Of a DNA stretch of 62,792 bases, positions 1 to 24,240 are shown piece after piece. A model generated the notes under the pieces. That model did no database searches. It was not told the origin of the DNA and was given only the letters and a program-made list of their open reading frames with translations. This DNA is from an uncultured Candidatus Poseidoniales archaeon (GTDB lineage: Archaea > Thermoplasmatota > Poseidoniia > Poseidoniales > Thalassarchaeaceae). The position numbers and the translations under genes were made by a program. The stretch is from positions 1 through 62,792 of the forward strand of contig CAYNXD010000025.1 of assembly GCA_964401115.1 (NCBI GenBank), in the 5' to 3' direction. The first letter of the stretch is position 1, and every line of letters begins with the position of its first letter.

Positions 1-3000
1 GTTTTGATTCCAGTTCTTCATTAGGGATGGATAATTTGAGGTCACCACCTTCTCCTGACATTCTGATTATGTATGCAATCATGTGGTTGAGCGTGGGGTG
101 TTCTCTCAACTGGAAAGATTCGTCAACAGGTAATGAAAACATTTCTCGCAAATCAGCCATTATCTCAGCCTGTTTCACAGTGTCAATCCCCAACTCACCT
201 TCAAGGTCTTGATCCAATTCAATAAAATCAGTTGGATAGCCGGTATGTTCAGCAACTGTATTTACGACTTTGATTACAATTTCTTCGTTAGTTGATTCTG
301 GTAAAGTGACTTGAATAACCTCTTCCTGCTTTTCTATTGGGGCTGGCGCCTCATCCTTAGGTTTGATTTCAGCGACCTCTATTTCCTCAACTTTGGTTAC
401 TTTAGTGATGGGTTTAGTGCTTGAATCGGGTGCGGCATCCTGTTTAGCAGGAATCCACTCATTACCCTCGACCCCACCAATTAGATTTTCATCTGGGGCA
501 ACATAAGCGACGAGTTTCCTTTCTAAAATGCGGCTAACAATGTTGTCTCCGACTTGTTTCATAGTCCAATTCTCGACACTTTGCTTATCTATTCTATTAG
601 TTGAACGAGCAATTCTCTTGAATAATGTAAGAGCAATCTGGCTCCCAAATCCAGCAGCGTGACGGAACATGTATTCGATATCATAAGAACCACCTTCAGA
701 GAGTCTTAGATTACCAAGTTCTGGATCCCGCTCCTTGAAATTTGCAATAGGTGGTAGGCGGCCTGATGCTAATCCATACAAGCCAGTAGCATCTTCAATG
801 CCAACACCCATTGGATGTCCAGTGAAACCTTTCGTATTCGTAATAATTAGATCATCAGCAGATGCCCCGAAAGCACCTCTCAATGACTCGACTTCAGCAG
901 CGGCAGAACCACCGCGAGGAGGGGTGAACGGCTCATGTGACATGAAAGTGGTTTGATGGGCTATTACATGGCGGTCTATCCCCCAATCTTTCTCCATTTT
1001 TGATACGAACTCGTCAAAAGTAGTGGCTACATGATCAACATCTAGGCGAGTTGGGTGGAAGGCAGAATTACCAATGTGCGCACCAAGTAATTCTGCATAT
1101 GGTATAATTCCTCTATCCGATGCATGTGACGATTTTTCTATTACAAATGCAGCACCACCCATTCCAAGCAACATTCCGTTTCTACGAGCGTCGAATGGAA
1201 GAGCAACTTCCTCTACAACATTACCCATCGAGTGAGCTCCGGCTGCAGCAAAACCGGTACCGATCCATTCCATCAAGTCATCACCAGTCGAGTCGTCCCC
1301 ACTAATGACAATGACTCTGTCACATCTTCCGGATGACAACCAATCTTCGGCAATTGCAAAGGCAGCTGGTGTTGATGCACAAGCGTTGTTTATTGCAGCA
1401 TTTGGTCCTCTTGCTCCTATCCACTGAGCAAATTGTGCGTGGCCCATAGTTAGAACTTGGAGGAGGAATCTACGATCAAAAGTACCATTTTCATCTGCTC
1501 CATTGTTTTGGGCGTGACGCATTGCCATAGCCAAACCTGGCCAAACGGATGCGAACACAACTCCAGTTCGCTCCTTTATCGTGGAGGGGAGGTTCCATCC
1601 TCTAACAAGTCGTTTTCCTGCACTACTAGTCTGCTCAACAGGAATTAATGGCAATCCAGCATCTTTCAACGCTTCAAGACCTGCAGCAAAGGATAGAGTA
1701 GTGGATACATCCATTGCAGCTACAATCTTGGGGTCGATTCCATATTGTTCTGCTAAATCAAAATATCCACCGACCCCAGCCAGTTGGGGGATTGTGTCGA
1801 ATGAATCGCAAGGAACAAATTCTGCCCTTCCATCTTTATGTTTCACAATTCTAACCATATTTTTATCGAGTAATCTCAACTTTGTTTCTTCAGGAAGTTC
1901 GCTAATAAAATTCTCTCCTTCAATTATTCTCTCTAAAGCGTCATCACAGAAAACCTCGTCCATTCCTGGAAGACCTAGACTAACTCCAGTTACTACATAA
2001 GGATTCATTTTTCGTTCTAGAATTGAATTAGTTACAACTGAATTACCACCTGAGTGGGACCTGATAGGTTTTGTGAATCCTGAAGGGGGTGTGGCAACCC
2101 ATTCAACAAGGGCAGATAAGGTAGTTAGAGAATCATCAATTGGATGTTTAACAGTTGCTTCAGAGGATATTCTGTTAAGCAGTTGTGATAGATTGCTACC
2201 ATCGATTCCAAGGGTAGTCAGTTCCAACTCTCCCTTAATCATACTAGCGGGATATCCGCAAATATCTGAAATTCGGTTTGCTAAATAACCTTCAACATCA
2301 TCCAATTGCTCAATTAATTGATTTGTATGAACTGCAGTTGGTGGGAGGGTGGCAGAATCCATATTGGGGAAGGGTCTTGAACGGACACGGAGTTCTTCCC
2401 ATTCTGAACTACTGACGCCCACTTCTTTTGGTAATCCAATATTTTTCTGACCCCAAATCTCAATTGGACCTGCACGGAAGCCCTCTGTCAATCTCAAAGA
2501 ATCATGAGGGTGCATTTCAGATAACCTACCTGCTAGAGAACAAACGGCTAGAGATGAAAGGAATGAGGCGACACCCCCCACCTTTGGATGATTTGTATTA
2601 GTCACAACAACCCCCTCATCTTCTGAAGATAATTGAGCATCATCCAATATTTGCTCAGCAAATAGTGCGAGTGCTCGCTTTGGTCCAACCTCCATGAAGA
2701 GCCGGCCACCACCTTCATACATTGTAAGAATCTGTTGAGTCCATTCTACTGCTGAAGACATCTGAGGGGCTAACTGGCCCAAAATTGCCTGATGTATTGA
2801 CCGATTTTGATCTAATTTTTCGGGATAGAAATTTCCATCATAGTTGGCAGTAATTGGGATCGATGGGAGTGATAGTTCCAAATCTTCAAGAAATCGTCTA
2901 AGAGGTTCATTAGCCGGTGCAACTATCTTTGAATGAAATGCATGACTAGTCTGTAGTTTGACACATTGTATATTCAATTCAGCAAACCTTCGAATTACTT

Positions 3001-5440
3001 CGTTCATTGCATCAGTCTCACCAGCAATAACAGTCATCAAAGGAGAATTCTTGTTAGCAGCAATCACGTATCCATCTACCGAATTAACTACTTCTTCGAC
3101 TTTTCCTATTGGCGCTGAAACACTCGCCATTATCCCTTTATCAGGAACTTCTACGTTACCCATTTCAGTCCCTCGAGCAGCAGCTGCTCGCAGAGCGTCA
3201 TGGAATTTGAGAATCCCCGAAACCATCAATGCAGCATACTCTCCAAGGCTATGTCCTGCAACCATATCAGGTTCAATCCCATGCTCAAGAAGTAGTCGGT
3301 ATATTGCCAAATCTGCAGTCAGCATCGCGGGCTGTGTATATTCAGTCTGTTTCAATTTCTCTTCAGCAATTCTTGCTTCCTCTTCTGAAAGATTTTCTCT
3401 CAATACAAACTCTGAGAGTCGCTCTCCTCCTAGGATTTCAATCATTGTGCGATCAGCCTCGATCCATGTTTCACCCACTACTTCGAAACGTTTTGACAAA
3501 TCGAGAGTCATCCCAACATATTGGCTACCCTGTCCAGGAAACATCTGTACAAGTTTTGCATTTGGAGTAAGTGCAGGCTCATCTGTAATGAAGACCATCT
3601 GTTTTGCTAGGAAAGCCCATTTTGATTTATCAGACAAATTCTCCTCAAGCAAGTTCAGTCGCTTCTCCAATTGTAACCAACTTGTAGCAACTACACCACA
3701 TCTAACCCCTTCTGCTTTGAATCCATTAGATAGTGCAGACAACGCAACTGAAAGTCTGCGTCCTTCTGGAGATTCATCAAAAGTAGGGGAAGATGGGGAA
3801 AGAAGTGCGATTTTTGCCATATTAATTTCATCAGCAAGTAAATCTAGACTGGGTGCATTGAGCAATAATAAGCCACCTTCAATGTTTTTCAATTCATCGT
3901 GCGTCATCGATGGTTTGGCATTTTGATCGAGAACACTAGGTGCTGATGGCGGTTTGGATTCAGTAGTTTTAGAATGTTCAATTTCATTAACTATTTTTAG
4001 ATGATGTTCGGGATCATATTGTTCTAGAGTACAGTGAAAATTAGTCCCCCCAAATCCGAATGATGAGATGCCGGCACGTCTAGGCATTCCTGATTGTGGC
4101 AATGGCCATTCACTAGCGGTAGTTGGAACAAAGAATGGGATTTCATCCCAGTTTACTGATGTGTTTGGTTGTTCAAAACCTGCCGATGGTGGAATTGTTC
4201 GATGATGAAGTGCAAGGCATGCCTTGAGTAATCCGGCCATTCCAGCAGCAGCCTTCAAATGGCCGATTTGACTTTTTACAGAACCAACGGCTACGTAATC
4301 TCCGTTACTTTTCTCAGAGAAAATCTCTGCTAAAGCCGAGAGCTCGGTCGCATCACCGACTTTCGTACTTGTCCCATGTGCCTCAATTAATTCTACAGAT
4401 GATGCAGAGTAACCTGCCTGTTGGTAGGCGCGAATTACCGCCTGTTTCTGCCCTCTTGTAGAGGGTGCTGTAATTCCCTTCCCCCTTCCATCACTCGAAG
4501 CACCAATTCCCCGAATTACACTGTAAATTACATCCTCATCGCGAATAGCATCTTCTAGTCTTTTGAGTACAATGCAACCAGCTCCTTCACCCATTACAAA
4601 ACCATTAGCGCGCGCATCAAACGGTCGTGAATGAATGGGTGATAGCGCACCAATTGAGGAAAATTTTGCATATGTACCAGGGTCCATGGTGCAGTCACTG
4701 GCACCACACAGCATCACATCCGTCTGTCCTGATTGTAGCATTTGACAAGCGGAAACTAATGCAGCAAAGGTGCTTGCACAAGCTGCGTCAGCACTGAAAT
4801 TAGGCCCTTGCAAATCAAGAAGGTTAGCAACTCTTCCAGCAACGACATTTGCTAATTCTCCGGGCATGGTATCTTCATCAATCCGAGGCGTTCCTTCAGT
4901 AATTGATTCCTTAAATTGTTCAATTACTTCTTCAGGCATTCCTACTTCAACAGCTTTCCTTGCAAATTGATCAGCATAAATTCGGTGACTAGACATTACT
5001 CTATTTTCTCCACCAAGGGCATTGGCAAATATTACCCCACACCTCTCATTTGGTAACTCAAGCCTTTTTCCTTCGCCAAGGTAACCAGCATCTTCTAGGG
5101 CTGACGCGGAAACCTCAACTGCCCATAATTGAGTGTCATCAATCTGATTAAGCGTCCCAGGTGGCTGTTTCCATCTTCGCCAATCAAACTCAAAACTCTC
5201 AATAAAAGCACCAATTTTGGAGTAAGTTTTCCCTTCCGACACATCACCTGGCTCACCTTCAACCCAGAAGTCTTCACTATTCCATCTGTCTTGAGGTACT
5301 TCTTTAATTGAGACATGTGCATTAATCACATTGTCCCAGAACTTACCAACATCTGGTGCGTCAGGTAATAGGGCAGAGATACCAACTATTGCAATCGGTG
5401 AGAATGATTGCTGGGGTTTTTCTTCAAGTTGGTTACTCAT
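1..5440 (-). CDS. Type I PKS/FAS-like (Pfa-related) megasynthase, KS-AT-(ACP-like)-KS-ACP; 3' end runs off the window
   Basis: Not in the ORF track because there is no stop in the window. Hand translation from ATG 5440 (GAGGT RBS upstream) gives MSNQLEEKPQQSFSPIAIVGISALLPDAPD. All motifs are in one frame. KS1: DAAC (Cys 4778-4780), EAHGTST, KSQIGHLKAAAG, SSFGFGGTNFH. AT: FPGQGSQ, GHSLG (Ser 3248-3250), HAFHS. KS2: NNAC (1379-1381), MSHE, KGFTGHPMG. ACP: TGYP..ELGIDTVKQAE. Confidence 0.93.
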   Translation of the reverse strand, partial: MSNQLEEKPQQSFSPIAIVGISALLPDAPDVGKFWDNVINAHVSIKEVPQDRWNSEDFWVEGEPGDVSEGKTYSKIGAFIESFEFDWRRWKQPPGTLNQIDDTQLWAVEVSASALEDAGYLGEGKRLELPNERCGVIFANALGGENRVMSSHRIYADQFARKAVEVGMPEEVIEQFKESITEGTPRIDEDTMPGELANVVAGRVANLLDLQGPNFSADAACASTFAALVSACQMLQSGQTDVMLCGASDCTMDPGTYAKFSSIGALSPIHSRPFDARANGFVMGEGAGCIVLKRLEDAIRDEDVIYSVIRGIGASSDGRGKGITAPSTRGQKQAVIRAYQQAGYSASSVELIEAHGTSTKVGDATELSALAEIFSEKSNGDYVAVGSVKSQIGHLKAAAGMAGLLKACLALHHRTIPPSAGFEQPNTSVNWDEIPFFVPTTASEWPLPQSGMPRRAGISSFGFGGTNFHCTLEQYDPEHHLKIVNEIEHSKTTESKPPSAPSVLDQNAKPSMTHDELKNIEGGLLLLNAPSLDLLADEINMAKIALLSPSSPTFDESPEGRRLSVALSALSNGFKAEGVRCGVVATSWLQLEKRLNLLEENLSDKSKWAFLAKQMVFITDEPALTPNAKLVQMFPGQGSQYVGMTLDLSKRFEVVGETWIEADRTMIEILGGERLSEFVLRENLSEEEARIAEEKLKQTEYTQPAMLTADLAIYRLLLEHGIEPDMVAGHSLGEYAALMVSGILKFHDALRAAAARGTEMGNVEVPDKGIMASVSAPIGKVEEVVNSVDGYVIAANKNSPLMTVIAGETDAMNEVIRRFAELNIQCVKLQTSHAFHSKIVAPANEPLRRFLEDLELSLPSIPITANYDGNFYPEKLDQNRSIHQAILGQLAPQMSSAVEWTQQILTMYEGGGRLFMEVGPKRALALFAEQILDDAQLSSEDEGVVVTNTNHPKVGGVASFLSSLAVCSLAGRLSEMHPHDSLRLTEGFRAGPIEIWGQKNIGLPKEVGVSSSEWEELRVRSRPFPNMDSATLPPTAVHTNQLIEQLDDVEGYLANRISDICGYPASMIKGELELTTLGIDGSNLSQLLNRISSEATVKHPIDDSLTTLSALVEWVATPPSGFTKPIRSHSGGNSVVTNSILERKMNPYVVTGVSLGLPGMDEVFCDDALERIIEGENFISELPEETKLRLLDKNMVRIVKHKDGRAEFVPCDSFDTIPQLAGVGGYFDLAEQYGIDPKIVAAMDVSTTLSFAAGLEALKDAGLPLIPVEQTSSAGKRLVRGWNLPSTIKERTGVVFASVWPGLAMAMRHAQNNGADENGTFDRRFLLQVLTMGHAQFAQWIGARGPNAAINNACASTPAAFAIAEDWLSSGRCDRVIVISGDDSTGDDLMEWIGTGFAAAGAHSMGNVVEEVALPFDARRNGMLLGMGGAAFVIEKSSHASDRGIIPYAELLGAHIGNSAFHPTRLDVDHVATTFDEFVSKMEKDWGIDRHVIAHQTTFMSHEPFTPPRGGSAAAEVESLRGAFGASADDLIITNTKGFTGHPMGVGIEDATGLYGLASGRLPPIANFKERDPELGNLRLSEGGSYDIEYMFRHAAGFGSQIALTLFKRIARSTNRIDKQSVENWTMKQVGDNIVSRILERKLVAYVAPDENLIGGVEGNEWIPAKQDAAPDSSTKPITKVTKVEEIEVAEIKPKDEAPAPIEKQEEVIQVTLPESTNEEIVIKVVNTVAEHTGYPTDFIELDQDLEGELGIDTVKQAEIMADLREMFSLPVDESFQLREHPTLNHMIAYIIRMSGEGGDLKLSIPNEELESK

Positions 5441-5449
5441 ATTATAACC

Positions 5450-6241
5450 TCAATCTGATATGCTGTCCGGCACCATCGTACTTGAATATCCAGCATCGAC
5501 ATGAATAATCTGCCCAGTAACTCCGGATGAAAGTGGTGAAGCAAGCCAAACAGCACAGCCAGCAACATCGTTCTGATTGACATTTCTGCGAAGTGGTGAA
5601 TTCCGTTCGACATGATTTAGGATGTCATCAAATCCAGGAATGCCACTAGCTGCAAGTGTCTGAATTGGCCCTGGTGATATGGCATTAACTCTATGCCCCT
5701 CAGGACCAACATGATTCGCCAATTCACGAGTCCAGGCCTCCAATGCTGCTTTTGCAATACTCATCACCCCATAGTTTGGAACCCACCGAGTAGATGCTGC
5801 ATAGGTTAGAGTAATTGTTGAGGAGTTTGGTGCTAGGTGTGGTAAAGCATGGCGCATCAATCTCTGTAGTGAATGAGCACTCACCGTCATAGCGATATTC
5901 ATAGGTTCATTCTCAGCAAAAAGAATCGGTCTATCGAAACATTCTCTTGGGGCGAATCCAATTGCATGTATTACAATATCAGCCTTGGCTCCCGGATTCT
6001 CTGCTTGCCATTCTGTGAAAAATTCAGAAGTTAATTCATTGGTAGAAACATCGATTGGATAGAATGCCTCAATAGCATCTAAATTCTCTTTCAATTGGAA
6101 AACACGGCTCATAAAACGCCTTTGGAAACCGAGAATTAGTTTACAACCAGCAGCAGCTAATTGTTCGCAAATTGCCCATGCTATGCTATCTTCACTAGCG
6201 ACACCGAATACTAGTGCAGTCTTTCCTTCTAGTTCCAACAT
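5450..6241 (-). CDS. fabI: Enoyl-ACP reductase (FabI-type SDR)
   Basis: GVASEDSIAW, HAIGFAP, catalytic YGVMSIAK (Y-x6-K), RVNAISPGPIQTLAASGI, VTGQIIHVDAG. Start moved to ATG 6241 (MLELEGK) behind a GGTGG RBS; 6265 is an alternative. Confidence 0.9.
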   Translation of the reverse strand: MLELEGKTALVFGVASEDSIAWAICEQLAAAGCKLILGFQRRFMSRVFQLKENLDAIEAFYPIDVSTNELTSEFFTEWQAENPGAKADIVIHAIGFAPRECFDRPILFAENEPMNIAMTVSAHSLQRLMRHALPHLAPNSSTITLTYAASTRWVPNYGVMSIAKAALEAWTRELANHVGPEGHRVNAISPGPIQTLAASGIPGFDDILNHVERNSPLRRNVNQNDVAGCAVWLASPLSSGVTGQIIHVDAGYSSTMVPDSISD

Positions 6242-6391
6242 GAAACCACCTATTCCTCCCAACATCGATTCGCCGGCGACATCGGCTTCAAGACCTTTGC
6301 CCACTCTGTGAAGCGAATGCATCATTCAGCATAGCATCTATTTTTCCCCAATTATGTCCGAGAAGTGTCGATTTATACATATTTCAGCGAT

Positions 6392-7273
6392 TCACGCATA
6401 TTCACCATATAGTGCCTCAGGTAAATCGATGTGAATTGCACTAAGTGTTGCCTCAGCATCAATTCCCATTCCAATCAAAGTAGTCGCTAACTGTTGTGTT
6501 CTTTTTGGGACAGTCTTTGGTCCCAGTACAGCGCCAGGTCTTCGAGGGTCGTCCATATAATCCGTCTCCATAAGGAAACCACCCTCATTTTGCCAAATTG
6601 AATTTACAATATCCTTAATCGCATCACGGCCAACAACCACAGATGAAGTCAAACCGTGAGTAAAATTCTTGCTGATATTTCCTTCTGCATGGTGGTGGAT
6701 AGCACCAAATCTTGGAAAGCCCACAATATCACAGATTTGGGAGATTTCTTTGTTTGTTTTTTCTCCATTAGAATCTAAATGAAGTTGTGCAGGGACATTG
6801 GCTTGTTTACACATCCCTAGAATTTCCGCAAGTAACTGGTCTGCATGTTCAATTACTTCCTCTCCAACATCCCAATGCGGGCGACCAACCTCTCCAACTC
6901 CTACTGCTAGATTCTCATTGCAGAATTCTATAGCAATCTCAACTGAAGAAATATGAAGCTCTCCTGCTACTTCATATCCCAATTCAGCAGTTTGATGCAT
7001 CCATGCTGCTGGATGAGGTCCAAGAATAACTCGAACTCTTAAATCATGCTCACTACGGGTGTTTTCGGCCATTTCAATAGTCTCTTCATACGCCCTACGA
7101 ATCTCAGTTTCGTCAATTGGTAAATTATTGAAATCGGGTTTGTGAACCAGTACTAAATCAGTTCCACCAGCACGTTTGAAATCGAGCGCAGCATCAAGAT
7201 ATCTTCCAGCCTTGTCTAGATGAAAATGATTGTCTAGGATGGGGCCATCCCACCGCCCCTCTGAGAGATCCAT
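6392..7273 (-). CDS. TatD-like metal-dependent hydrolase (archaeal COG1831-type)
   Basis: DNHFH, GPHPA, GVGEVGRPHW, QLH, METDYMDDPRRPGAVLGPKTVP motifs. Start set at ATG 7273 behind GAGGGTGA. Confidence 0.8.
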   Translation of the reverse strand: MDLSEGRWDGPILDNHFHLDKAGRYLDAALDFKRAGGTDLVLVHKPDFNNLPIDETEIRRAYEETIEMAENTRSEHDLRVRVILGPHPAAWMHQTAELGYEVAGELHISSVEIAIEFCNENLAVGVGEVGRPHWDVGEEVIEHADQLLAEILGMCKQANVPAQLHLDSNGEKTNKEISQICDIVGFPRFGAIHHHAEGNISKNFTHGLTSSVVVGRDAIKDIVNSIWQNEGGFLMETDYMDDPRRPGAVLGPKTVPKRTQQLATTLIGMGIDAEATLSAIHIDLPEALYGEYA

Positions 7274-7286
7274 TTTCACCCTCCAA

Positions 7287-7901
7287 TCACTCTTCAATCA
7301 CATCGAGGACTTCATCGGAATCGTTTTCGACAGATTCATTTGTCTCATCCTCGTCTTTTTTCAGTAAGACGCTTACAAACAGATTTTCGGATTCGAATCT
7401 TGTTCCCCAGTGTGTAGTAGCCATTTCAACTAAATTTTTGTGCCTCGCACCTAATGAAACACCTCTACCGTTAGAAAAAAACAGAAGATCCATATCATGC
7501 ATAGAATCTTTGATGCGAATACAATCTAGTCTCGAATCCTCTACAAATTCAGGAAAATATTCTGATACTTGATCAATCCTCAACGGTTGCCCATAATCGA
7601 AAGATACAACCAGCGGCCCCTTTTCTGTAGTCAGGCCTTCATCAGATTTACCTAATCTAAGCAACATCTCTCGAGCAGCAGCCCACGCAATTTCAGAATG
7701 ATTAGTGCCGTGAACAACTAACCTACCGTCCTGATCGACTAGTAATGTAGCACGAGGATTCTTAAGTGCTAGAATAACAAATTTACCGTTTTTTTTCCCA
7801 CCTAGGGTGTTAATTACGTCTTCAGAGTTGAAGGGTTCCGGTGGAGTAAATCGTATCAATTGATTTTCGACGCGAACTTCAACAGCACTTTTTCGAGCCA
7901 T
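7287..7901 (-). CDS. Divergent TATA-binding-protein (TBP)-fold protein
   Basis: Two pseudo-repeats, PRATLLVDQDGRLVVHGT and MDLLFFSNGRGVSLGAR, resemble the TBP P-x-x-x-x-LIFxSGKxVxTGAK repeat. Acidic C-terminal tail. Confidence 0.55.
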   Translation of the reverse strand: MARKSAVEVRVENQLIRFTPPEPFNSEDVINTLGGKKNGKFVILALKNPRATLLVDQDGRLVVHGTNHSEIAWAAAREMLLRLGKSDEGLTTEKGPLVVSFDYGQPLRIDQVSEYFPEFVEDSRLDCIRIKDSMHDMDLLFFSNGRGVSLGARHKNLVEMATTHWGTRFESENLFVSVLLKKDEDETNESVENDSDEVLDVIEE

Positions 7902-7903
7902 GA

Positions 7904-8686
7904 TTAGTCCCCCTCAGCAACCGCTTCAAATTCCTCCACATCGGGCTCAGTCTTGAGCGTTGCGAGTATGTCTTTCATCCAATCTTGATAGATAGGAACC
8001 ATCAATATTGCAGATTCGTTACTACTTGTCAAATCAGCCAATGCCCCTCTAAGTCGTCCTGTAAACCTAAGATTTCTAGTCTCACGAAGTTGTTGATTCA
8101 GCATCGATTCCGAACATCGCCACCAAGTAGCAGCTAGTCCAGCACATATTGCAATTGCATCAGAAGATTCTTTGATTTGAGGTTCGGTAACATCCAATTG
8201 AACGGCTTTCCAAATTTTTCTAAATCTTCTCCTAGCGAATAAATGCCCAATCATTCGTGATAATCTACTAGCTTCATCTACCACCTCTAATGACCAATTT
8301 AGCCACTCTTCATCATCTACTCCCGGCTCCAAAAAATATGTTGGTAATCCGCCTTTTTTTGCTAGATTTACGAGTCGAAAAGGTTCAGGGTCAGGTAATT
8401 TTGCTGCTCTAATCTCTTCAAGTAATTGCATTTTTATTAACATCCTTGAAAAGTCACCACCACCATGAATTGCCAACATTGTGGCAGAACCTTTTCCATC
8501 CTTTTCCATTTGAGCTTCATCCTTCCAAATTTCTTGTTCATCTGGATGAAGCAATAGGGCTAGACCGTCCCAATCATCTCTTGGACGCAATTCTCTAGGG
8601 GAAACCATTGTTGGAATATAGGGGTAGAAACGGATAGTGCCTCCGTTCGGATCGCTCCAATCAACACTCTTCCATGGCCAAGTCAC
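7904..8686 (-). CDS. Hypothetical protein
   Basis: 260-aa ORF tightly packed in the operon, with a GAGGTGG RBS. No motif recognised. Confidence 0.7.
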   Translation of the reverse strand: MTWPWKSVDWSDPNGGTIRFYPYIPTMVSPRELRPRDDWDGLALLLHPDEQEIWKDEAQMEKDGKGSATMLAIHGGGDFSRMLIKMQLLEEIRAAKLPDPEPFRLVNLAKKGGLPTYFLEPGVDDEEWLNWSLEVVDEASRLSRMIGHLFARRRFRKIWKAVQLDVTEPQIKESSDAIAICAGLAATWWRCSESMLNQQLRETRNLRFTGRLRGALADLTSSNESAILMVPIYQDWMKDILATLKTEPDVEEFEAVAEGD

Positions 8687-8695
8687 TCAACCACC

Positions 8696-9916
8696 TCACC
8701 GAATAATAGAGGAATCTTTTGCTAAATCGTTGGTGATATTCTTTTGATGACTTTCAAGTGTGCCCCCCCCAATTTCAAGCAGCTTTGCATCACGCCATAA
8801 TCTCTCAACCACGTATTCCCCAACGTAACCATAGCCACCCATTACCTGCATCGCTCTATCAGCAATTTCTTTCGCTAGTGTTGTTGCTACCAATTTGATA
8901 CCATCAGAATCCAAACGTTGGCTGCTTTTTTCGATATCCATTTGTCTAGCTACATTGTAGAGGTATGATTCCATTGAACGCCATTCAGCGAAAGACTGTC
9001 CAATATATCGTTGGATTTGTCCGAACTTCCTAATTGGTTTCCCAAATGCTTCTCTTTCGCTTGCGTAGCGATTCATCTCGAACAAAGCACGTCGAGCGAT
9101 ACCTACACTCATCGCGGCTAACATTAATCTTTCAAGCTCCAAGTTTCTCATCATGTGAATCATGGATTCACCTTGGGAGCCAACCAATGAATCAGCAGAA
9201 ACGATACAGTCATCATAAACCAATTCAGCGGTATTTGATGCCCTCATTCCGGTTTTATCCATAATTTTCTGCCCAACTGAAAAACCAGGGCTATCTGCAT
9301 AAACTAGGAATGTAGAAATCTCAGAACGCCCCCTTTCATCTAGGCCGGTCTTAGCATATGTCCAAACCACATCACAAGGAGTATCATCATCATCAATACA
9401 TCCGTTAGTAATCCACATTTTTCTTCCATTGATTTTCCAAGTCCCATCATCTTGTTCTTCTGCAGTAGTCCCCATGCCTAGCACATCGGTCCCTACATCT
9501 GGCTCTGACATTGCCATGGCTGCTATCCATTCTCCACTGCAAACTTTTGGTAATATTGCAGCCATCTGGGCATCAGAACCGTTTCGTGCAAGGTTGTTGA
9601 CAAACAACATACTGTGAGCCAAATAAGCGAGGGCAAAACCGGGGTCACTGTAGGATAACTCTTCATGAACAATTGCTGCAGCTAATGCGTCCATTCCGGC
9701 ACCCCCGAATTCTTCTTGAGCAGTAATTCCTAGTAACCCCATTTCACCCATGTCTCTGAGAAGTTGTGAATTGAATCTCTCAGCTCTATCATAATCTAGT
9801 GCTTGAGGCTCCACCTCTTCTGCCACCCAATCTCGGACCATTTCTCTGAGCATAGCATGCTCATCCGTTGGATTCGCAATATCAAGATCCTTCCAATTTG
9901 TCACGATTACACCCAC
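8696..9916 (-). CDS. Acyl-CoA dehydrogenase (isovaleryl-CoA dehydrogenase-like)
   Basis: AMSEPDVGTD, NGRKMWITNG, KTGMRASNTAEL, REAFGKPI, GGYGY, RDAKLLEIGGGT. The start may be GTG 9904. Confidence 0.9.
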   Translation of the reverse strand: MGVIVTNWKDLDIANPTDEHAMLREMVRDWVAEEVEPQALDYDRAERFNSQLLRDMGEMGLLGITAQEEFGGAGMDALAAAIVHEELSYSDPGFALAYLAHSMLFVNNLARNGSDAQMAAILPKVCSGEWIAAMAMSEPDVGTDVLGMGTTAEEQDDGTWKINGRKMWITNGCIDDDDTPCDVVWTYAKTGLDERGRSEISTFLVYADSPGFSVGQKIMDKTGMRASNTAELVYDDCIVSADSLVGSQGESMIHMMRNLELERLMLAAMSVGIARRALFEMNRYASEREAFGKPIRKFGQIQRYIGQSFAEWRSMESYLYNVARQMDIEKSSQRLDSDGIKLVATTLAKEIADRAMQVMGGYGYVGEYVVERLWRDAKLLEIGGGTLESHQKNITNDLAKDSSIIR

Positions 9917-9933
9917 TGCGTAATACTAGGCTC

Positions 9934-12900
9934 TCACTTGTTTTCGCTCACCCAGTCTTGAAGCTGCTGTATTGACCAACCTTGGTCGAAGTATCCTTGA
10001 ATAGTCTCTTCATCCCATTGTGGGAAGAGGCGTTTTGCTCTATCCATCTTTGACTCACCTGATCCAGGTGGCCCTGCGCTTCGTCCGGGCGGCCCAGCAC
10101 TGTATCCAGAAGTTTGAGTTTCACGCCCACCGTAATCACCTCTTGACATTGGCTGAACGGCTTCTCCAGGTGGTAGATAATCTTCATCCTCTACGAAGAA
10201 ATCGTCCTCATCTTCTCCTCTGTTACCCATGAACATCATAATCCCAACAACTAGTGCAATTAGTACAATGATGACCGCAGCAATTCCCCCGTATAGGGCC
10301 CAATCAGTTCCTCCAGTAGCAGAAGTACCAGCAGCACGAATATGGAATGAGTCAGACTCTCCAAGATCGTTACCATCCATATCTTGAATCTTGAACTTCA
10401 CCGAAGAAACAGCCTCAGGGAATGCATCTACTTGCACACGGCATATTTCTGACATACTTGGAGCAAATGTGGTGCCACAACTGTGATTGAAATTTCCAAC
10501 CTGCTGCCCTTCAATTACAGTGTAAATTTGTAGTTGTAATTCACCCGAGTCAGTCCCAACATTAGTGACATCAACAAGAATTTCGAACATTTGCCCTGCT
10601 TCGGGCTGGCTGGGTGAAATCATTACACGGTCAATTCTAAACTCGGCTTCCTGATAGGTCAGTGAGTACTCCCCGCCTTCCACAGCAGAGCCAAATTGTC
10701 CTGCCAATGTAATACCATTTCCTGCGGAATCGGTTCCAGATATCCAGAATCGCAAATCCACACCATCAAGATCAGATGGTAATTCGTGATTAGGCCACAA
10801 ATCAAGACAATCAATGGATGCTCTGTTTGGTGATGCAGTCAAATCCAAATTCAAATCTTCAGTTTGCCAAGGGTCTGGATAAGTGGATTTATACTGTGAC
10901 CAGTTCAAGTCATTGTAGTAATACATCCAATTGATTTGCATAGATCCATCTATCAATTTTTGTCTCTCTTCAATAGCGAAATCAATGTTGACACAATGAA
11001 TCGTAGAGGATGGCAATATCCCGGAATAAGATTCTCCACTACCACCTGATTCCAAATCCCATGAGCCCCATACTGCTGTTGGAGCCTCGTTATCCACCTT
11101 GACATAGAAAGTCCTATCATCAGCTATTGAGAAATCAGTTGCCCCAATAGGCAAAGAGAATTCACAATCGGGATTGCTAGAGTCTTCAGCAGCACAAATT
11201 CTGAACACGTATCTGTATTCATTTGTAGAAAGAGCAGCAGGTACTGTTAGATCAAAAGTTCCGTTATAGAATGGGTAGTAACTGACTTCTGTAGCGGCCG
11301 CTACGTATCCACTTCCCGGCTTGTCAGATTCTCCGCCAGGATAAATAGGGATTCTAGTAATCTCCAATGTCATTGGGATTTCTGGTTGTACAAAGATACC
11401 ACCTTCCAAAGCCGATTTGAAAAGGTAATCGCCAGTAATTTGGAGAAGGTCACCTGGTCGAACAAAGCCACCACTAGCAGTACCTACGGATTCAGTGATG
11501 AATCCCGAGGTATCGCTAACGCTTAGTGTAGCCACATCAAATTTCAGTCCATCGGAATAAGCCCATCGCTGAATATATCTACTACTGGATAGTTTTGTTT
11601 CGCTGCTTTCTGGGTCTAAGTCTTTCATGAATACTTCAGGAGTAATCACTCCTTGCAGAGTAGTAACACCCCAATTTAGACGAATCGGTAAATCAACTAA
11701 AAATTCAGTTTCAAATGGGTCAATTAGCGCTGTTCCATCTAATCGGGTAGCTCTAGGTTTGATTCCATCATCTTCTATATTCAAAAATTCGGCAGATGTG
11801 CTTTCCGTCCATGCAGTTCCATTACGAGGTGAGAAGAAAAGAACCAAATTATTGTTGTATGCTGGATTCAAATCGACCTTTACATAATCAACATCTCTCC
11901 ATCCATTTTCATCAGTGCCATCAATCAACAAATGGTAGACATTTCCTGCGTACATGGATTTGTTGAACTCTGTCAGAGGATTTCCAAATGCATCTTCGAT
12001 ATGTAGTGAATATGCTTGAGGTGGAATTGACATTTTTCCAATGTAAGTAATCAAGTCACCAATGAAGCCACCCTCTCCACCATTTATTGGATTCCCTGAG
12101 ATGTCAGTGCCTGAAACGAACAGACTTGTTCTTGGGGCAGGTGCGCCATTAGGCACAGTTAATCCTGTTTGCCGGTCATCGATACAATCATTTGTTGGTG
12201 GGCAACTTGGATTGGATATGAAATATGTAGTGTTCCCATTATCATCTGTAGAATACTCGGTTAGAGGAATAGACTGATACTCATCGATTTCAGCTTGTCT
12301 GTTACTGTTAGTATCATGTTGTGCTTCAACCCAATAATTCAAGGTGAATTCTGGTGGTGTATTGGGTATGTCTCGAACAATAACTCGGAACTTTTGGTTG
12401 GCTTCAGGTTCAATCCAAGTGTCGTCCATCAATTCACGCCAATTCGTGCCAGTCCATACACTAATATTCACTAAGAATGGTGAGTATTGGTCAATATATA
12501 CTGTCATTGGGATACCACATTCGCTATCTGGGGAAAGTGATTGAGGGGGGCAGATTGTATTACCGCCAGTGTAATTTGCGAGACGTAGGCGGAAGGTATC
12601 ATTACCAGCAGAAAGTTCTGGAACCACTGGTTGCCAAGAAAAGTTTCCACCTAGTACTCCATTGAGCCTATCCACTTCATTCCATTCGCTTAGATTCGAC
12701 TCATTCTGAGTTTCGAAAATTAGGAAGTATGATGATGGGTCTGGAGCAACATCAAGATTCTCAAGACGAACGGTTCCTTCTAGGGTGAAAATATTGTTAC
12801 TATTAACATTTGAAAGATCGGTTTGGGGATCTCCAGCTTGATTAAGTACAGTTAGTTGTGATATTGAAGCATCATTTTCTACTGCATTCCCTGCTCCCGG

Positions 12901-15819
12901 TGGGTCAAATAATCTGGCTGCTGGTAATCCTTCAGAACCAGAATCGGTAATTAGAGTTGTAAAAACCCTAGCAGATTCAGAATCCTCCCAAGCTGAATTT
13001 ATTCTGAAGCGCCACGTAATCTGCTTTCCATTTACTATGTCAGTAGAACTTGATAAGGCTGCTAGGATTGATACAAGATCTGAAGATTCACTGTTTGGAT
13101 ACCAGAATGAATCATTGTCAGAAGACCAAATTATCTCAGAAAACCCACTTTCGGATTCAAATTGTAGGCTGGCACCAACCATTGAAACACCAGAAATAGA
13201 AGGGTCGATTGAATGTGTAGAAATTACTTCGTAGACCTCACCTGTGGCATACAAACCAACCCATTCTTCACTCAAGTTTAGAGTCGAATCATAACCACTT
13301 TCTGTAGTAACCATGAGGTCGGAAAGAGTCAATCCACCACCACTATCTGATGAAAATTCCATCGGAACCAATACTTCGCCACCGATTGCTTGCCCAAGTG
13401 CAACTCCTTGATTTAACTCTCTAGCAATATTGTTGTCATCTGATAGAGTACGACTCCAGGTGTAAAAAATGTCCAAATCCCTTAGGTTGATGCTTGATGC
13501 TGCCTGAGCGGATGGGTTTGTAAAGCGGAAACGGAATTGAATCCACTCGTTACCGAATGAATCAACATTACTTACAGGAACAGATGTATTATCGATTAGC
13601 GACTGAATGTTGTGTGCGAATTGCTTCAAATCACTCCTTTCATCGTCAGGAGTCATTCTTGCTTCTTCACCCACAGTTCCTAACACCTCGGATGCCTGGC
13701 CTGCAAGTAATTCAATCGTTGCGTTTCCAATATTGGCATTATCGAATGATAATTCAGCATGGCTAATATCTGCTCCTTTTGGTAAGAAGAAAACGGCGCC
13801 TTCAGCTTCACCGTTGATATTCATCGACAAGATAGTATTATCAGAACCATAATTGATTCCATTTACCATTTGTGTTCTGAACATCTGTTGTCGCCCCAGT
13901 GATCCATACGCACTTTCAGTAATCCCCCATTCTATATCGCCATCTCCCGCAACATCGAGTTGAACGTTAGACATAGTATGAGCAAATCTAACCTCCATCC
14001 ACATCGAATAAACGGTACATTGGGCTGAATATTGTATGCCTAGAGCGATTCCTGTAGAAGGTGCGCCAAAGGTCAGCCATTGGTTGTTTAATGGACTAAA
14101 GGTTCCAGAATTATTGTTTGTTGGTACAACAAATATTTGTCTATCAGAGGATGTACAAGAATCAGAAATAATCGGTTTGACAGCCATAATTGGCATTTTG
14201 AATCTATTTTTTGATAAAGCAGGCGACCAGTTATTATCTATCATCGTCGGACTATATCCAATAACTCCACCACCTTGTTCAGTGGTCCATTGCCCGTTGG
14301 CAAAGGTACCTCCAATGTACATTAAGGAATCTGATGAATTTAGGCCAGTTCCAATTTTTGTTCCAAGTGTGAAACCATACAATACTGGGGTATTCATTCT
14401 ACTAGATCCTGAATGGTAATTAAATCGTAGGTCAATCAATCCATATTGGTCTGTATCAATATCCCATAACTCAATCAATTCCCCCTCAAGTCCGGACAAC
14501 GCTACTCCATTAATGTCAATCACTACTTGGCCATTTGAAGAATCTAGAATATCTACGGTGAATGAGCCGGGCCCAGTTGTTACTACTTCAACATCAAGAA
14601 TACCGAATCCCTCTGGAAAACCATCCCCAGCCAATTGGGGTGTAGCCGTAAAAGATTTCATTACCACATTTCCAGATTGTGGCAAAGGATCGCCAATTTG
14701 GAATGTGTCGATATACCAACCTGGCATGGTGGCATTTACTGGGGTGCCCATCACTACGTTTCTTTCAAGGATGAATCGCAAGCGAATGTATTTACCCTCA
14801 GACATTGACAAATCCAAACCAATATTAGCCCAGCCATTCTGATTGTTTGGAGACATACTCTCTCCTGCCAGAACCCAAGCGTTAGCTGGTACTGAAATTG
14901 TGCCCTTACCATTACAATTTGATTGGACTTTGTTTGCCCCGGAAGTTTGCACTTTCTGGAATAATCCATGAGTTCCTTGCTGTAACCCTGTGGTGTTCCC
15001 CATATCGAAGTCAAGGAAACTCCACTGAGACCAACCCACAGCATCAGAAGAATCTTGGAAAGCCACGTATGCACAATCTTCGTAGTACATTGCCCCAGGT
15101 CCGGTGGAACGGTAGTTGAGGCTGTGCCAGGAATTGAAAGATGCAGAACCTTTGTTGGGATGAACCCAGATTGGACTTGTATCCATTGTGTATTCAAAAC
15201 TACTAACCATTGAATCATCAGTGTAATCAGGGTCATCAAAGTTGGTCCCCCAACAATAGTTGCCCATACCACAACCAGTTGGAGGCATCATTAGGCCACC
15301 CATTCCACCCCCTGGTGTTTTTCGCTCCCAATTGAACATACCATCAATAGCAGGCCCGGGTACCATACCTTGGCCCCCAGTCTCGAATTCAGCATTGAAT
15401 CCTAGGCTTGAGAGAGCCAAAAAGTCTTGTTCAGCCGAAAATGAACAGTCCATGATGTTAGTTGGGTGGTGGCAATTTGCGTCACTGTATGTCGTCAATC
15501 CATTGTTGTATCTTGGGTCCCATATGCCTCCTCCATTGGGGGGCATGATTGACTCGTCATAAGTTATGAAATCAGAGTGCGTAGCAAAACCCGTGGAAAC
15601 ATTAAGGCTTGCCGATGTAATTGTCTCCCCTTCTGGCAGAGAAATTGCCCCGCTCAAACTATCCTGGTAACTTCCAGGAATTCTAAGTTCTACATCAACT
15701 TCAGTACTCCCATCAGAAAAAATTGTCACTGACGCTGCTCCAGCAGATGTGGATAAGAGCATTAGCCCAATAATCAGGTAACTTATCGACTTTTTATTTC
15801 TATTATTCATGTCCATCAC
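9934..15819 (-). CDS. Large secreted, membrane-anchored surface protein (1961 aa) with a C-terminal CARDB/Ig-like domain
   Basis: N-terminal signal peptide, acidic beta-rich body with many N-x-S/T sequons, CARDB-like ISPSQPEAGQMFEILVDVTNVG, one TM helix and a cytoplasmic tail. Confidence 0.8.
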   Translation of the reverse strand: MMDMNNRNKKSISYLIIGLMLLSTSAGAASVTIFSDGSTEVDVELRIPGSYQDSLSGAISLPEGETITSASLNVSTGFATHSDFITYDESIMPPNGGGIWDPRYNNGLTTYSDANCHHPTNIMDCSFSAEQDFLALSSLGFNAEFETGGQGMVPGPAIDGMFNWERKTPGGGMGGLMMPPTGCGMGNYCWGTNFDDPDYTDDSMVSSFEYTMDTSPIWVHPNKGSASFNSWHSLNYRSTGPGAMYYEDCAYVAFQDSSDAVGWSQWSFLDFDMGNTTGLQQGTHGLFQKVQTSGANKVQSNCNGKGTISVPANAWVLAGESMSPNNQNGWANIGLDLSMSEGKYIRLRFILERNVVMGTPVNATMPGWYIDTFQIGDPLPQSGNVVMKSFTATPQLAGDGFPEGFGILDVEVVTTGPGSFTVDILDSSNGQVVIDINGVALSGLEGELIELWDIDTDQYGLIDLRFNYHSGSSRMNTPVLYGFTLGTKIGTGLNSSDSLMYIGGTFANGQWTTEQGGGVIGYSPTMIDNNWSPALSKNRFKMPIMAVKPIISDSCTSSDRQIFVVPTNNNSGTFSPLNNQWLTFGAPSTGIALGIQYSAQCTVYSMWMEVRFAHTMSNVQLDVAGDGDIEWGITESAYGSLGRQQMFRTQMVNGINYGSDNTILSMNINGEAEGAVFFLPKGADISHAELSFDNANIGNATIELLAGQASEVLGTVGEEARMTPDDERSDLKQFAHNIQSLIDNTSVPVSNVDSFGNEWIQFRFRFTNPSAQAASSINLRDLDIFYTWSRTLSDDNNIARELNQGVALGQAIGGEVLVPMEFSSDSGGGLTLSDLMVTTESGYDSTLNLSEEWVGLYATGEVYEVISTHSIDPSISGVSMVGASLQFESESGFSEIIWSSDNDSFWYPNSESSDLVSILAALSSSTDIVNGKQITWRFRINSAWEDSESARVFTTLITDSGSEGLPAARLFDPPGAGNAVENDASISQLTVLNQAGDPQTDLSNVNSNNIFTLEGTVRLENLDVAPDPSSYFLIFETQNESNLSEWNEVDRLNGVLGGNFSWQPVVPELSAGNDTFRLRLANYTGGNTICPPQSLSPDSECGIPMTVYIDQYSPFLVNISVWTGTNWRELMDDTWIEPEANQKFRVIVRDIPNTPPEFTLNYWVEAQHDTNSNRQAEIDEYQSIPLTEYSTDDNGNTTYFISNPSCPPTNDCIDDRQTGLTVPNGAPAPRTSLFVSGTDISGNPINGGEGGFIGDLITYIGKMSIPPQAYSLHIEDAFGNPLTEFNKSMYAGNVYHLLIDGTDENGWRDVDYVKVDLNPAYNNNLVLFFSPRNGTAWTESTSAEFLNIEDDGIKPRATRLDGTALIDPFETEFLVDLPIRLNWGVTTLQGVITPEVFMKDLDPESSETKLSSSRYIQRWAYSDGLKFDVATLSVSDTSGFITESVGTASGGFVRPGDLLQITGDYLFKSALEGGIFVQPEIPMTLEITRIPIYPGGESDKPGSGYVAAATEVSYYPFYNGTFDLTVPAALSTNEYRYVFRICAAEDSSNPDCEFSLPIGATDFSIADDRTFYVKVDNEAPTAVWGSWDLESGGSGESYSGILPSSTIHCVNIDFAIEERQKLIDGSMQINWMYYYNDLNWSQYKSTYPDPWQTEDLNLDLTASPNRASIDCLDLWPNHELPSDLDGVDLRFWISGTDSAGNGITLAGQFGSAVEGGEYSLTYQEAEFRIDRVMISPSQPEAGQMFEILVDVTNVGTDSGELQLQIYTVIEGQQVGNFNHSCGTTFAPSMSEICRVQVDAFPEAVSSVKFKIQDMDGNDLGESDSFHIRAAGTSATGGTDWALYGGIAAVIIVLIALVVGIMMFMGNRGEDEDDFFVEDEDYLPPGEAVQPMSRGDYGGRETQTSGYSAGPPGRSAGPPGSGESKMDRAKRLFPQWDEETIQGYFDQGWSIQQLQDWVSENK

Positions 15820-16577: not shown

Positions 16578-16688
16578 GGGTCTCGGATACGGTTCTACCG
16601 GATGAGCACTTCTCTCACAATCGCAATCATTTTGCTTCAATAAAACAAGGCTTGATGAGGGGTGAGCGCTGGGGGACGTATTGATAAC

Positions 16689-17150
16689 ATGACATCTGAA
16701 CCTTTCTCAATCGAACCCGTGGTCTTAATTCAGGAGGTTTTTCCTGGTGATACAAACGCCTACAATACTCTGTTTGGGGGTAGGTTGTTGTCAATGATGG
16801 ATACCGCAGCAGGTATTGTATCCAGTAAATTTGCCCATCGTCAATTTGTAACTGTTAGTATAGATGCTCTGAAATTCAAAAAACCGGCTTATCAAGGAGA
16901 TTTGATTGAGGTCACGGCTAAGGTGGTCTTTACTTCAACTCACACAGCGGGTTGTCACGTGATTGCTCGAAGAATAGATAGGAGTGTATGGGAAACAGAA
17001 GATATCTGCGTAGGCTTCTTTTTCATGGTAGCAATTGACAGCCAAATGCGACCAATTCCAATTCCACAATTCGCCCCACAAAATGAAGAGGAACAACAAC
17101 TCTGGGATGAAGCCCAGTTAGCTCGTGATGCAATGAAGGCAAATGACTGA
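16689..17150 (+). CDS. Acyl-CoA thioesterase (HotDog fold, YciA-like)
   Basis: PGDTNAYNTLFGGRLLSMMD, VTVSID..FKKP, FFMVAID..RPIPIP. Confidence 0.88.
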   Translation: MTSEPFSIEPVVLIQEVFPGDTNAYNTLFGGRLLSMMDTAAGIVSSKFAHRQFVTVSIDALKFKKPAYQGDLIEVTAKVVFTSTHTAGCHVIARRIDRSVWETEDICVGFFFMVAIDSQMRPIPIPQFAPQNEEEQQLWDEAQLARDAMKAND

Positions 17151-23765: not shown

Positions 23766-24240
23766 ATAATATTATCAAATGTAAGAATATAAATAATAAT
23801 TATAACATCACTTTATGGTTCTTGTAATTAATTGTCATTTTTCATTGATCTGATATTTGATATTGTTGCATTTAGAAATATAATACAAAATCTCGCGATA
23901 ATTGTTACAAAAAACCTCTCAAAAAAATCACTCTTCAAATTTGATAATAGTTTATCGAACACTCGCGCGACAAACATCAGATGCTTCGGCGACCGTTCAG
24001 GTAGAAAAATATCAAAACCTAACTCCAACGAGGAATAATTGTTATTTTTTATCCAATTCCAATTGAGAGTTCATATAGTAGATTTCTATTTTGACATTAA
24101 GAAAATATGTAGTCAGCCTCTAAGTTATCAATTAGGCTTATTAGACCGTCACACTTCCTCGTGAATCTCCGTAACGGGGGCGACTGTGACTCTAACATGA
24201 AAGATTGACTAGTTAAGAAGAAAAAGAATGGTGTTATAAA
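23766..24240. other. AT-rich intergenic region upstream of cdc6; candidate replication origin
   Basis: 475 bp noncoding and very AT-rich at 23765-23890, next to orc1/cdc6. Only degenerate ORB-like words are present (TTCAGGTAGAAA near 23997). Confidence 0.35.

Follow-up and report, generated by a model that had tools for sequence, protein, structure and literature searches.

An ACP-dependent FabI-megasynthase-PPTase gene cassette in Poseidoniales archaea and its probable role in acyl chain synthesis

Contig CAYNXD010000025.1 of an uncultured Candidatus Poseidoniales archaeon of the Thalassarchaeaceae (assembly GCA_964401115.1) carries at its left end fabI, a gene for an enoyl-acyl carrier protein (ACP) reductase, and behind it the beginning of a gene for a type I megasynthase. 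The window analysed here is this whole stretch of 62,792 bp, i.e., the entire contig C25 of a 1.68-Mb genome which consists of 91 contigs and is 71.9% complete and 0.29% contaminated. Together with a phosphopantetheinyl transferase (PPTase) gene on a second contig, both genes form a cassette, fabI-megasynthase-PPTase, of which the window holds the 5' two-thirds. This cassette was probably acquired once from bacteria by an ancestor of the Poseidoniales with vertical inheritance thereafter, and probably encodes a synthase that works iteratively and with full reduction to build a saturated acyl chain of accessory function. The synthase adds a new member, from an archaeon, to a synthase family that is known but uncharacterised.

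A previous sequence-only reading of the window had proposed an open frame from position 5440 to the window edge, which is confirmed: the minus-strand frame starts with an ATG at 5440, continues to position 2 and runs off the contig end, giving 1813 amino acids (P0001). As that reading had also noted, it is invisible in the usual list of open reading frames (ORFs) and appears only when ORFs open at the contig end are listed. The ketosynthase (KS) motifs DAAC, HGTST, and GHLK as well as the acyltransferase (AT) motifs GHSLG and HAFH named there are all present in the translation, and the claimed second KS and ACP are borne out by a PF00109 match, matches to solved FabF enzymes and a PP-binding match. 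The frame is read as the N-terminal 1813 residues of a megasynthase of about 2812 amino acids, with the contig ending inside the linker between two carrier domains, ACP1 and ACP2. The features of the cassette and its upstream anchor are as follows (window positions unless contig C66 is named).

2..5440, minus strand: 5' part of the megasynthase gene, open frame to the contig end; dN/dS 0.072 against the closest relative.
4001..5401, minus strand: KS1, residues 14-480; Pfam PF00109, PF02801, and KAsynt_C_assoc; motifs DAACAS, HGTST, GHLK.
2546..3544, minus strand: AT, residues 633-965; Pfam PF00698, 125.5 bits; motifs GHSLG, HAFH.
2096..2287, minus strand: vestigial carrier-like domain ACP0 between AT and KS2; PF00550, 17.5 bits, under the cut-off.
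581..2023, minus strand: KS2, residues about 1140-1620, divergent and FabF-like; motifs NACAS, SHE, GHPMG.
68..271, minus strand: ACP1, residues 1724-1791, motif GIDTVK; PF00550, 43.6 bits (37.8 bits in the genome-wide profile search), cut-off 20.8.
5441..5449, minus strand: spacer of 9 nucleotides separating the synthase ATG from the stop codon of fabI, as the sequence-only reading had stated; operon-like coupling.
5450..6241 (longest ORF to 6325), minus strand: fabI, enoyl-ACP reductase; Pfam adh_short_C2 PF13561, 229.8 bits.
C66 (L005:51-254): ACP2; PF00550, 27.2 bits against a cut-off of 20.8.
C66 (L005:3029-3727): PPTase gene; ACPS, 34.4 bits (cut-off 25).
6392..7297, minus strand: TatD-family gene (Pfam), upstream anchor of the insertion site and outside the cassette; syntenic in the families f1, f2, and f3.

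The rest of the synthase gene was located by a tblastn search of P0001 against its own genome, in which contig C66 proved to begin with an ACP sharing 74% identity with ACP1. There, a 5'-open frame of 998 amino acids (P0003) comprises an ACP (17-84), a ketoreductase (KR, 467-611) and a dehydratase (DH) of the polyketide synthase (PKS) type (691-982) before its stop codon, and is followed by the gene of a 232-amino acid Sfp-type PPTase, an archaeal PCNA, GT2, and an M50 protease. The N-terminal domain of the PPTase (4PPT_N) scores 19.9 bits, under the cut-off of 27. Thus, the reductive domains and the PPTase which the sequence-only reading had suggested looking for beyond the window edge are found on C66 along with the second ACP, and its proviso of a frameshift or truncation leaving no reductive domains finds no support. 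In the closest relative (G019, 90% identity), both parts are united in a single protein of 2818 amino acids, with P0001 corresponding to residues 1-1812 and P0003 to residues 1828-2818. A public protein of 2812 amino acids (P0004) encoded on a 190-kb contig, which is 100% identical to the window protein over the KS2 region used as query, joins P0001 and P0003 via 8 residues, indicating that the contig break is a gap of 24 nucleotides in the repeated ACP region. The complete architecture can accordingly be read as KS1-AT-(ACP0)-KS2-ACP-ACP-KR-DH. The only PP-binding and ACPS matches of the genome-wide profile search are those of the cassette. In the same genome, at its completeness of 71.9%, FabA/FabZ (PF07977) gave no match and NMO (PF03060) gave only 23 and 20.7 bits, under the cut-off of 28.

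The catalytic residues of KS1, KS2, AT, KR, and DH are invariant in an alignment of 23 archaeal and bacterial family members. For KS1, this concerns C470, H604, and H643; its Pfam match covers residues 14-422 (245 and 143 bits), and among solved structures it scores 278 bits with PfaC (6riw) and 420 bits with the KS of a modular PKS (7zma). In the AT, both GHSLG and HAFH are invariant, the latter of which we take to be malonyl-specific; the FabD model TIGR00128 gives 178 bits, under its cut-off of 260.9. The best solved relatives of KS2, which matches PF00109 at window positions 1121-2002 (E 1.2e-15), are FabF/KAS II enzymes (4ddo, E 6e-23) with Cys, His, and His aligning. A chain length factor (CLF) is defined by the loss of the active-site Cys. 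KS2 keeps C1614, H1762, and H1802 in all 23 aligned members and is thus no CLF by this definition, so that the domain termed "CLF" in the Type R synthases of 2011 reads as a second KS. ACP0 has neither Ser nor Thr at the attachment position of the alignment, and some bacterial homologues possess ACPs above the cut-off at this place. The best NCBIfam model for the 1813-residue window part is PfaA (TIGR02813; 605.7 bits, cut-off 1010.1), and close homologues are named "SDR family oxidoreductase" or "Pks15/1" by NCBI.

The longest fabI ORF (P0002; 5450..6325) encodes 291 amino acids. Relatives align to it only from about residue 24-29, and the FabI of an Elusimicrobiota genome from Met29, which suggests that the true start is probably Met29 at position 6241, the coordinate given in the sequence-only reading. 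From this residue on, the protein is 50% identical to the latter FabI, which precedes a homologous synthase. It features the SDR fold and the Tyr-x6-Lys motif, which presumably is the catalytic one, with YGVMSIAK aligning to YKVMGVAK of the Elusimicrobiota enzyme. Among the best 25 of 178 NCBIfam matches, the highest are FabI models, with NF005615 at the top (225.7 bits against a cut-off of 391).

Judged by their sequences, KS, AT, ACP, KR, DH, and FabI together would provide a full reducing cycle. Such a cycle, in combination with a reductase fused to the synthase or encoded beside it in the Poseidoniales and five further family members, points to a synthase that works iteratively and yields a saturated acyl chain. 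In the proposed mechanism, the PPTase would load phosphopantetheine onto the two ACPs, namely at a threonine, and the AT would load malonyl units, which could come from the acyl-CoA carboxylase parts of the genome. The two catalytically intact KS domains would lengthen the chain iteratively, KR and the PKS-type DH would yield trans-2-enoyl-ACP, and FabI would reduce this intermediate in trans, resulting in a fully reduced, straight, fatty-acid-like acyl chain. An action of FabI in trans, as already assumed in the sequence-only reading, is supported by its operon position and its co-distribution with the synthase in 22 of 23 genera. Three carboxyltransferases are encoded in the genome, on contigs C19, C52, and C9. 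As a separate observation, a biotin carboxylase gene is situated in the window about 14 kb from the cassette (20154-21488, minus strand).

The cassette is a conserved unit within the class. In five relatives from three families (f1, f2, f3), including a closed 2.06-Mb genome, fabI, synthase, and PPTase genes are consecutive on one strand (FabI 263-291, synthase 2818-2941, and PPTase 232-278 amino acids), the PPTase gene being located directly downstream of the synthase in all five. Conserved flanks are a gene for a 260-amino acid protein, a TBP-like gene, and TatD upstream as well as GT2 and PCNA downstream. A search with P0001 gave matches in 39 of 41 genomes, counting the genome of the window (G000) itself, among them all 17 high-quality ones, and the presence in related metagenome-assembled genomes (MAGs) called for by the sequence-only reading is thereby given; the two genomes without a match are G018 (70% complete) and G023. 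In an even, class-wide sample of 151 genomes searched with KS2 (E<=1e-30), the synthase was found in 80 genomes, i.e., in 65/65 of family f3 and 14/40 of f1, and in 0/43 of f4 and 0/2 of f5. It was not found in the genera g12 (0/6), g14 (0/8), g15 (0/5), g16 (0/4), and g4 (0/3), which all have genomes of 1.2-1.6 Mb; g14 includes the closed genome G090 and the 97%-complete G086. FabI occurs in 79/151 genomes and shows the distribution of the synthase in 22 of 23 genera, the exception being g7 (FabI 20/21, synthase 21/21), where the synthase of G135 lies near the contig start.

At the equivalent site of G090 and G023, the 260-amino acid gene, the TBP-like gene, and TatD are followed by genes for 634-644 and 233-236 amino acids, GT2, and PCNA, with no trace of fabI, synthase, or PPTase. 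The single shared site and its empty state in small-genome genera suggest that the cassette is an ancestral insertion which is absent from small-genome lineages. The cassette is hence not universal in the order Poseidoniales. Its precise absence from the same site in several of these genera makes it most likely that the synthase supplies a "secondary", accessory lipid or is one acyl source among several, rather than producing the one indispensable membrane lipid.

The wider family is large and mainly bacterial. A search of 1.84 billion proteins with KS2 retrieved 532 representatives at E<=1e-30, and collinear homologues with 40-50% identity occur in Myxococcota, Chloroflexota, Acidobacteriota, Elusimicrobiota, Actinomycetota, Gemmatimonadota, Rhodothermales, and others. 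Archaeal homologues beyond the Poseidoniales come from MAGs of Thermoplasmata, Thermoplasmatales, and Thermoplasmatota and from Candidatus Heimdallarchaeum aukensis, whose genome is complete. For the KS1-to-KS2 core, a tree (FastTree, midpoint root) was calculated with 68 of 88 sequences, the other 20, including the Heimdallarchaeum one (L034), having an incomplete core or a low score. Therein, the 11 Poseidoniales sequences form one clade (support 100), and P0126, a protein of 3278 amino acids with four ACPs and no N-terminal extension, is sister to all of them (support 100). Both together join a Myxococcota pair with a support of just 72, and this tree singles out no donor lineage. P0126 is encoded on a 3.0-Mb contig, which is larger than the Poseidoniales genomes examined. 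KS1 homologues of other Thermoplasmatota or unclassified archaeal MAGs (L041, L050, L087, L103) are merely 42-46% identical. Since L041 and L087 group with Elusimicrobiota and Desulfomonilaceae, away from the Poseidoniales, the tree suggests that other archaeal synthases were acquired separately.

The accessory genes of the family vary in their arrangement. A C-terminal PPTase domain is fused to the synthase in all three bacterial members scanned, and the Poseidoniales PPTase gene is homologous to the fused domain of other members. Among 80 loci, FabI is found upstream in all seven Poseidoniales loci and in one Elusimicrobiota locus, and NMO is upstream or fused in three, including the Heimdallarchaeon. 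The Bradymonadaceae member starts with an NMO/PfaD-type reductase, and a fused NMO domain is recorded for P0129. The order in the Elusimicrobiota locus L100 is fabI, synthase, PPTase, and carboxyltransferase. In Heimdallarchaeum (CP084166.1, 6296-21228), a carboxyltransferase gene is followed by NMO-KS-AT, by a gene reading KS-AT-KS2-ACPx3-KR-DH-PPTase, and by an alpha/beta hydrolase; the cluster of this complete Asgard genome represents an ACP-dependent synthase with an NMO-type reductase.

By architecture, the synthase falls among the "Type R" secondary lipid synthases, with the named Type R strains being compared by description only. As described by Shulse and Allen (2011, PMC3098273), Type R comprises a pfaA-like gene with KS-MAT-CLF-ACP(3-6)-KR and, behind it, a PPTase gene; it has no known product and is reported from Koribacter, Solibacter, Elusimicrobium, and Roseiflexus, i.e., in Acidobacteria, Elusimicrobia, and Chloroflexi. 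The synthase described here shares with it the single pfaA-like gene with KS, MAT, second KS, tandem ACPs, and KR as well as the PPTase gene directly downstream, and the host phyla of Type R dominate its bacterial homologues. Likewise, the Koribacter cluster reported there includes an acetyl-CoA carboxylase gene, comparable to L100 and L034. However, the host here is an archaeon, a domain never mentioned in the main text of PMC3098273. Moreover, fabI is situated directly upstream, two to four ACPs are present, a PKS-type DH follows the KR, and the "CLF" position is occupied by a KS with complete Cys/His/His.

KS-MAT, tandem ACPs, KR, and PKS-type DH are shared with PfaA of the pfaABCDE systems, and TIGR02813 is the best model. 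Nevertheless, this model stays under its cut-off, a second KS is present within the same protein, FabI takes the place of the NMO/PfaD reductase, neither PfaB, PfaC, or PfaD partners nor a FabA-type DH/isomerase were found in the genome, and KS1 is no nearer to PfaC than to KS domains of modular PKS. These features, along with the Type R architecture, indicate that the enzyme is not a Pfa synthase of polyunsaturated fatty acids (PUFA). Iterative enediyne PKS (PKSE) have the architecture KS-AT-ACP-KR-DH-PPTase. The bacterial and Heimdallarchaeum family members resemble them by ending in a PPTase domain fused after KR-DH, but the second KS, the tandem ACPs, the reductase partner and, in Poseidoniales, the separate PPTase gene differ. 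The FabI itself corresponds to that of bacterial type II fatty acid synthases (FAS) in SDR fold and Tyr-x6-Lys motif (YGVMSIAK). In contrast to these, it is not surrounded by a type II FAS, ACPs were found only inside the synthase, FabZ/FabA was not found in the genome, and within the class sample Poseidoniales FabI occurs only alongside the megasynthase. The ACP-independent FAS complex proposed for Sulfolobus (bioRxiv 10.1101/2024.07.05.601840) is likewise described as a de novo fatty acid route in Archaea, but it uses thiolase/DUF35, SDR, and MaoC on CoA esters, whereas the cassette depends on ACP and PPTase.

An unusual feature concerns the carrier attachment site. ACP1 and ACP2 both read GIDTVK, with Thr opposite to the modified Ser in the DS(L/I) motif of every solved ACP aligned. 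Across 88 family sequences, 237 motif matches comprise Thr in 214, Ala in 9, Ser in 6, and other residues in 8 cases; 13 of the 88 sequences, mostly truncated, have no motif match. One Poseidoniales genus (G021) features Ser in both ACPs, which fits an attachment residue that is used as a hydroxyl. In the complete family clusters inspected, a PPTase is either fused to the synthase or encoded next to it, and such a dedicated enzyme would suit the unusual acceptor. Phrase searches of the literature found no paper on Thr-linked phosphopantetheine.

The bacterial type of synthase and fabI, the cut of the synthase by the contig end and the 91 contigs of the assembly might raise the suspicion of a mis-assembled or mis-binned bacterial fragment, or of a decaying relic. 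This appears extremely improbable. The fabI gene lies 66 nucleotides from the archaeal TatD gene on a 62.8-kb contig shared with Orc1/Cdc6 and CDC48, and contig C66 runs on into PCNA. Further archaeal markers of the window are the TBP-like gene and a DUF359/PPAT-type (cytidylyltransferase) gene, accompanied by SdhAB and further housekeeping genes. No transposase or integrase was detected among the 41 window ORFs scanned. Every named one of the best 120 database matches to KS2 belongs to Thalassarchaeaceae, Poseidoniales, Marine Group II (MGII), Euryarchaeota, or Thermoplasmatota. The earlier assignment to the chromosome of a probable MGII archaeon without mobility signature is thereby upheld. 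Its proviso of a chimeric junction also finds no support: contigs of public runs from other studies bridge the synthase start and fabI (4974-6361 in run X5, 5019-6236 in run X8), one such contig extends 83 nucleotides past window position 1, and the same gene order is found in five relatives, one of them closed. For run X2, depth was available in 23 of 30 bins; nothing is drawn from it. GC content is flat over window positions 1-10000 (0.42-0.46), and the synthase matches in genomes have no internal stops, with open frames of up to 3058 amino acids and shorter ones on short contigs. Against a decaying relic, the cassette is under purifying selection with dN/dS values of 0.01-0.15 (against G019: synthase 0.072, FabI 0.013, PPTase 0.145; TatD 0.041).

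With regard to the product, two other readings have to be weighed. The cassette could supply most of the acyl chains in a Poseidoniales membrane of bacterial or mixed type, built from ester-linked lipids based on glycerol-3-phosphate (G3P), with the synthase feeding PlsC-type acyltransferases. The genome indeed contains a GpsA-like gene and two PlsC-domain proteins, and full-length matches to one of these, a protein of 532 amino acids, are confined to cassette-bearing genomes. Moreover, Rinke 2019 reports the glycerol-1-phosphate (G1P) enzyme in 0/270 MAGs and G3P dehydrogenase in all genera but one, Besseling 2020 and Villanueva 2020 cite Villanueva 2017 for MGII genes for fatty acids and ester bonds, and PMC8473941 puts glycerol dialkyl glycerol tetraethers (GDGTs) and archaeol under 0.3% of the lipids of these cells. 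However, five genera of the same family, with a closed and a 97%-complete genome among them, gave no match to the cassette and have an empty site, and none of the 43 f4 genomes gave a match either, which weakens the idea of a bulk membrane lipid. Such a loss would be unexpected for an indispensable pathway, unless those lineages import fatty acids. A PlsC-like gene of 263 amino acids is kept without the cassette in g12 (6/6), g14 (8/8), g16 (4/4), g4 (3/3), and f4 (36/43), and for this reason the accessory lipid is ranked above the bulk membrane, a role which we regard as unlikely. On the whole, the interpretation offered in the sequence-only reading is largely upheld.

Alternatively, a specialised polyketide-like lipid might be produced, i.e., a partly reduced, hydroxy- or keto-bearing, or very-long-chain compound comparable to heterocyst glycolipids or alkylresorcinols, with different roles of the two KS and FabI acting in some cycles. 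Two intact KS domains and the vestigial ACP0 suggest an ancestral two-module layout, with real ACPs at this place in some bacteria, the family is defined as "secondary lipid" synthases of unknown product in PMC3098273, and the accessory distribution fits. In addition, antiSMASH labels T1PKS or HglE-KS appear for Poseidoniaceae clusters in a paper that has been retracted (PMC10434046). Nevertheless, there are no conserved adjoining tailoring genes: neither a type III PKS nor a reductase or thioesterase domain is present, and the cassette itself has no glycosyltransferase. The reductase (FabI/NMO) fused or adjacent in the Poseidoniales and in P0129, L033, L034, L055, and L100, as well as the carboxyltransferase adjacent in L034 and L100, rather point to fatty-acid-like chemistry, which renders the specialised lipid doubtful. 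A bolder combination would be that most Poseidoniales make their own acyl chains by the ACP-dependent megasynthase for ester-type or mixed membrane lipids, with ACPs loaded as O-phosphopantetheinyl-threonine by their own PPTase. If true, this would explain the scant ether lipid in Poseidoniales biomass, yet as a whole we consider it a rather improbable proposal.

Several points also weigh against the preferred reading, in which the synthase iteratively builds a fully reduced accessory acyl chain. The loading of the ACPs is an assumption in view of Thr at the site where aligned solved ACPs have Ser. The cassette encodes no release step, the acyl product is a predicted one, and the reading gives no reason for two active KS domains. 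FabI reaches no equivalog cut-off among the best 25 of 178 NCBIfam matches, and its adjacency is no proof of reduction in every cycle. Furthermore, the genome is only 71.9% complete. A release candidate is the 532-amino acid protein with an N-terminal PlsC-type acyltransferase domain (G000:C53:25555-27150), which has full-length matches in cassette-bearing genomes only. The genomes behind this link are related and have many losses in common, and g13 and g18 have the cassette but weak matches to the protein.

Other candidates for release or transfer were rejected, as neither is tied to the cassette. A nearby 4HBT thioesterase (window 16662-17150) occurs in 40/40 f1 and 65/65 f3 genomes regardless of the cassette, and the 263-amino acid PlsC-like protein in 138/151 genomes, cassette-less genera included. 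An ORF of likewise 532 amino acids after the Elusimicrobiota PPTase shows no similarity to the archaeal acyltransferase and is the carboxyltransferase. On contig C53 of the genome of the window, a CD36-family gene (L027:2146-3432, plus strand; PF01130, E 5e-18) lies next to the 532-amino acid PlsC-domain gene and is transcribed divergently from it. CD36 is a lipid/fatty acid receptor family known mainly from eukaryotes.

According to textbooks and recent literature, Archaea are without ACP and ACP synthase. Poseidoniales are the commonest archaea of the surface ocean and their membrane lipids are still unknown, the lipids of MGII being described as unresolved by Besseling 2020 and PMC8473941. 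The main texts of MGII genome papers searched mention fatty acid degradation only. No paper joining a type I PKS or PUFA synthase with MGII or Poseidoniales was found in a search that did not extend to Villanueva 2017 or to the supplements of Rinke 2019 and other papers, and in two of the papers naming both Marine Group II and PKS the respective passages tie no PKS to MGII. The only mention found is the list of antiSMASH classes (T1PKS, HglE-KS) for Poseidoniaceae in the retracted paper. The general remark of bacterial-like fatty acid genes in MGII can now be replaced by a defined three-gene unit with ACP, PPTase, KS, AT, KR, DH, and enoyl reductase, which in most of the order is maintained by selection and passed on vertically, with the genera featuring an empty site as natural "knock-outs". 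In addition, archaeal genes are linked to a large uncharacterised bacterial family, and an unusual Thr is flagged at the carrier attachment site.

Some further observations concern the window as a whole, in which neither a tRNA nor any Rfam family was found. In the AT-rich region 23600-24400 upstream of orc1/cdc6 (GC 0.386 in 23001-24000), only weak inverted repeats occur, and no origin-type direct repeats were found beside this gene. A minus-strand ORF of 1961 amino acids (9934-15819) has no Pfam match. The 204-amino acid protein encoded at 7287-7901 (minus strand), which shows a weak, partial TBP match (26.9 bits), lies beside TatD in f1 and f2, also in cassette-less genomes. Finally, a plus-strand ORF of 1752 amino acids (36745-42003) with PA14 and Laminin_G_3 domains probably encodes a surface protein.

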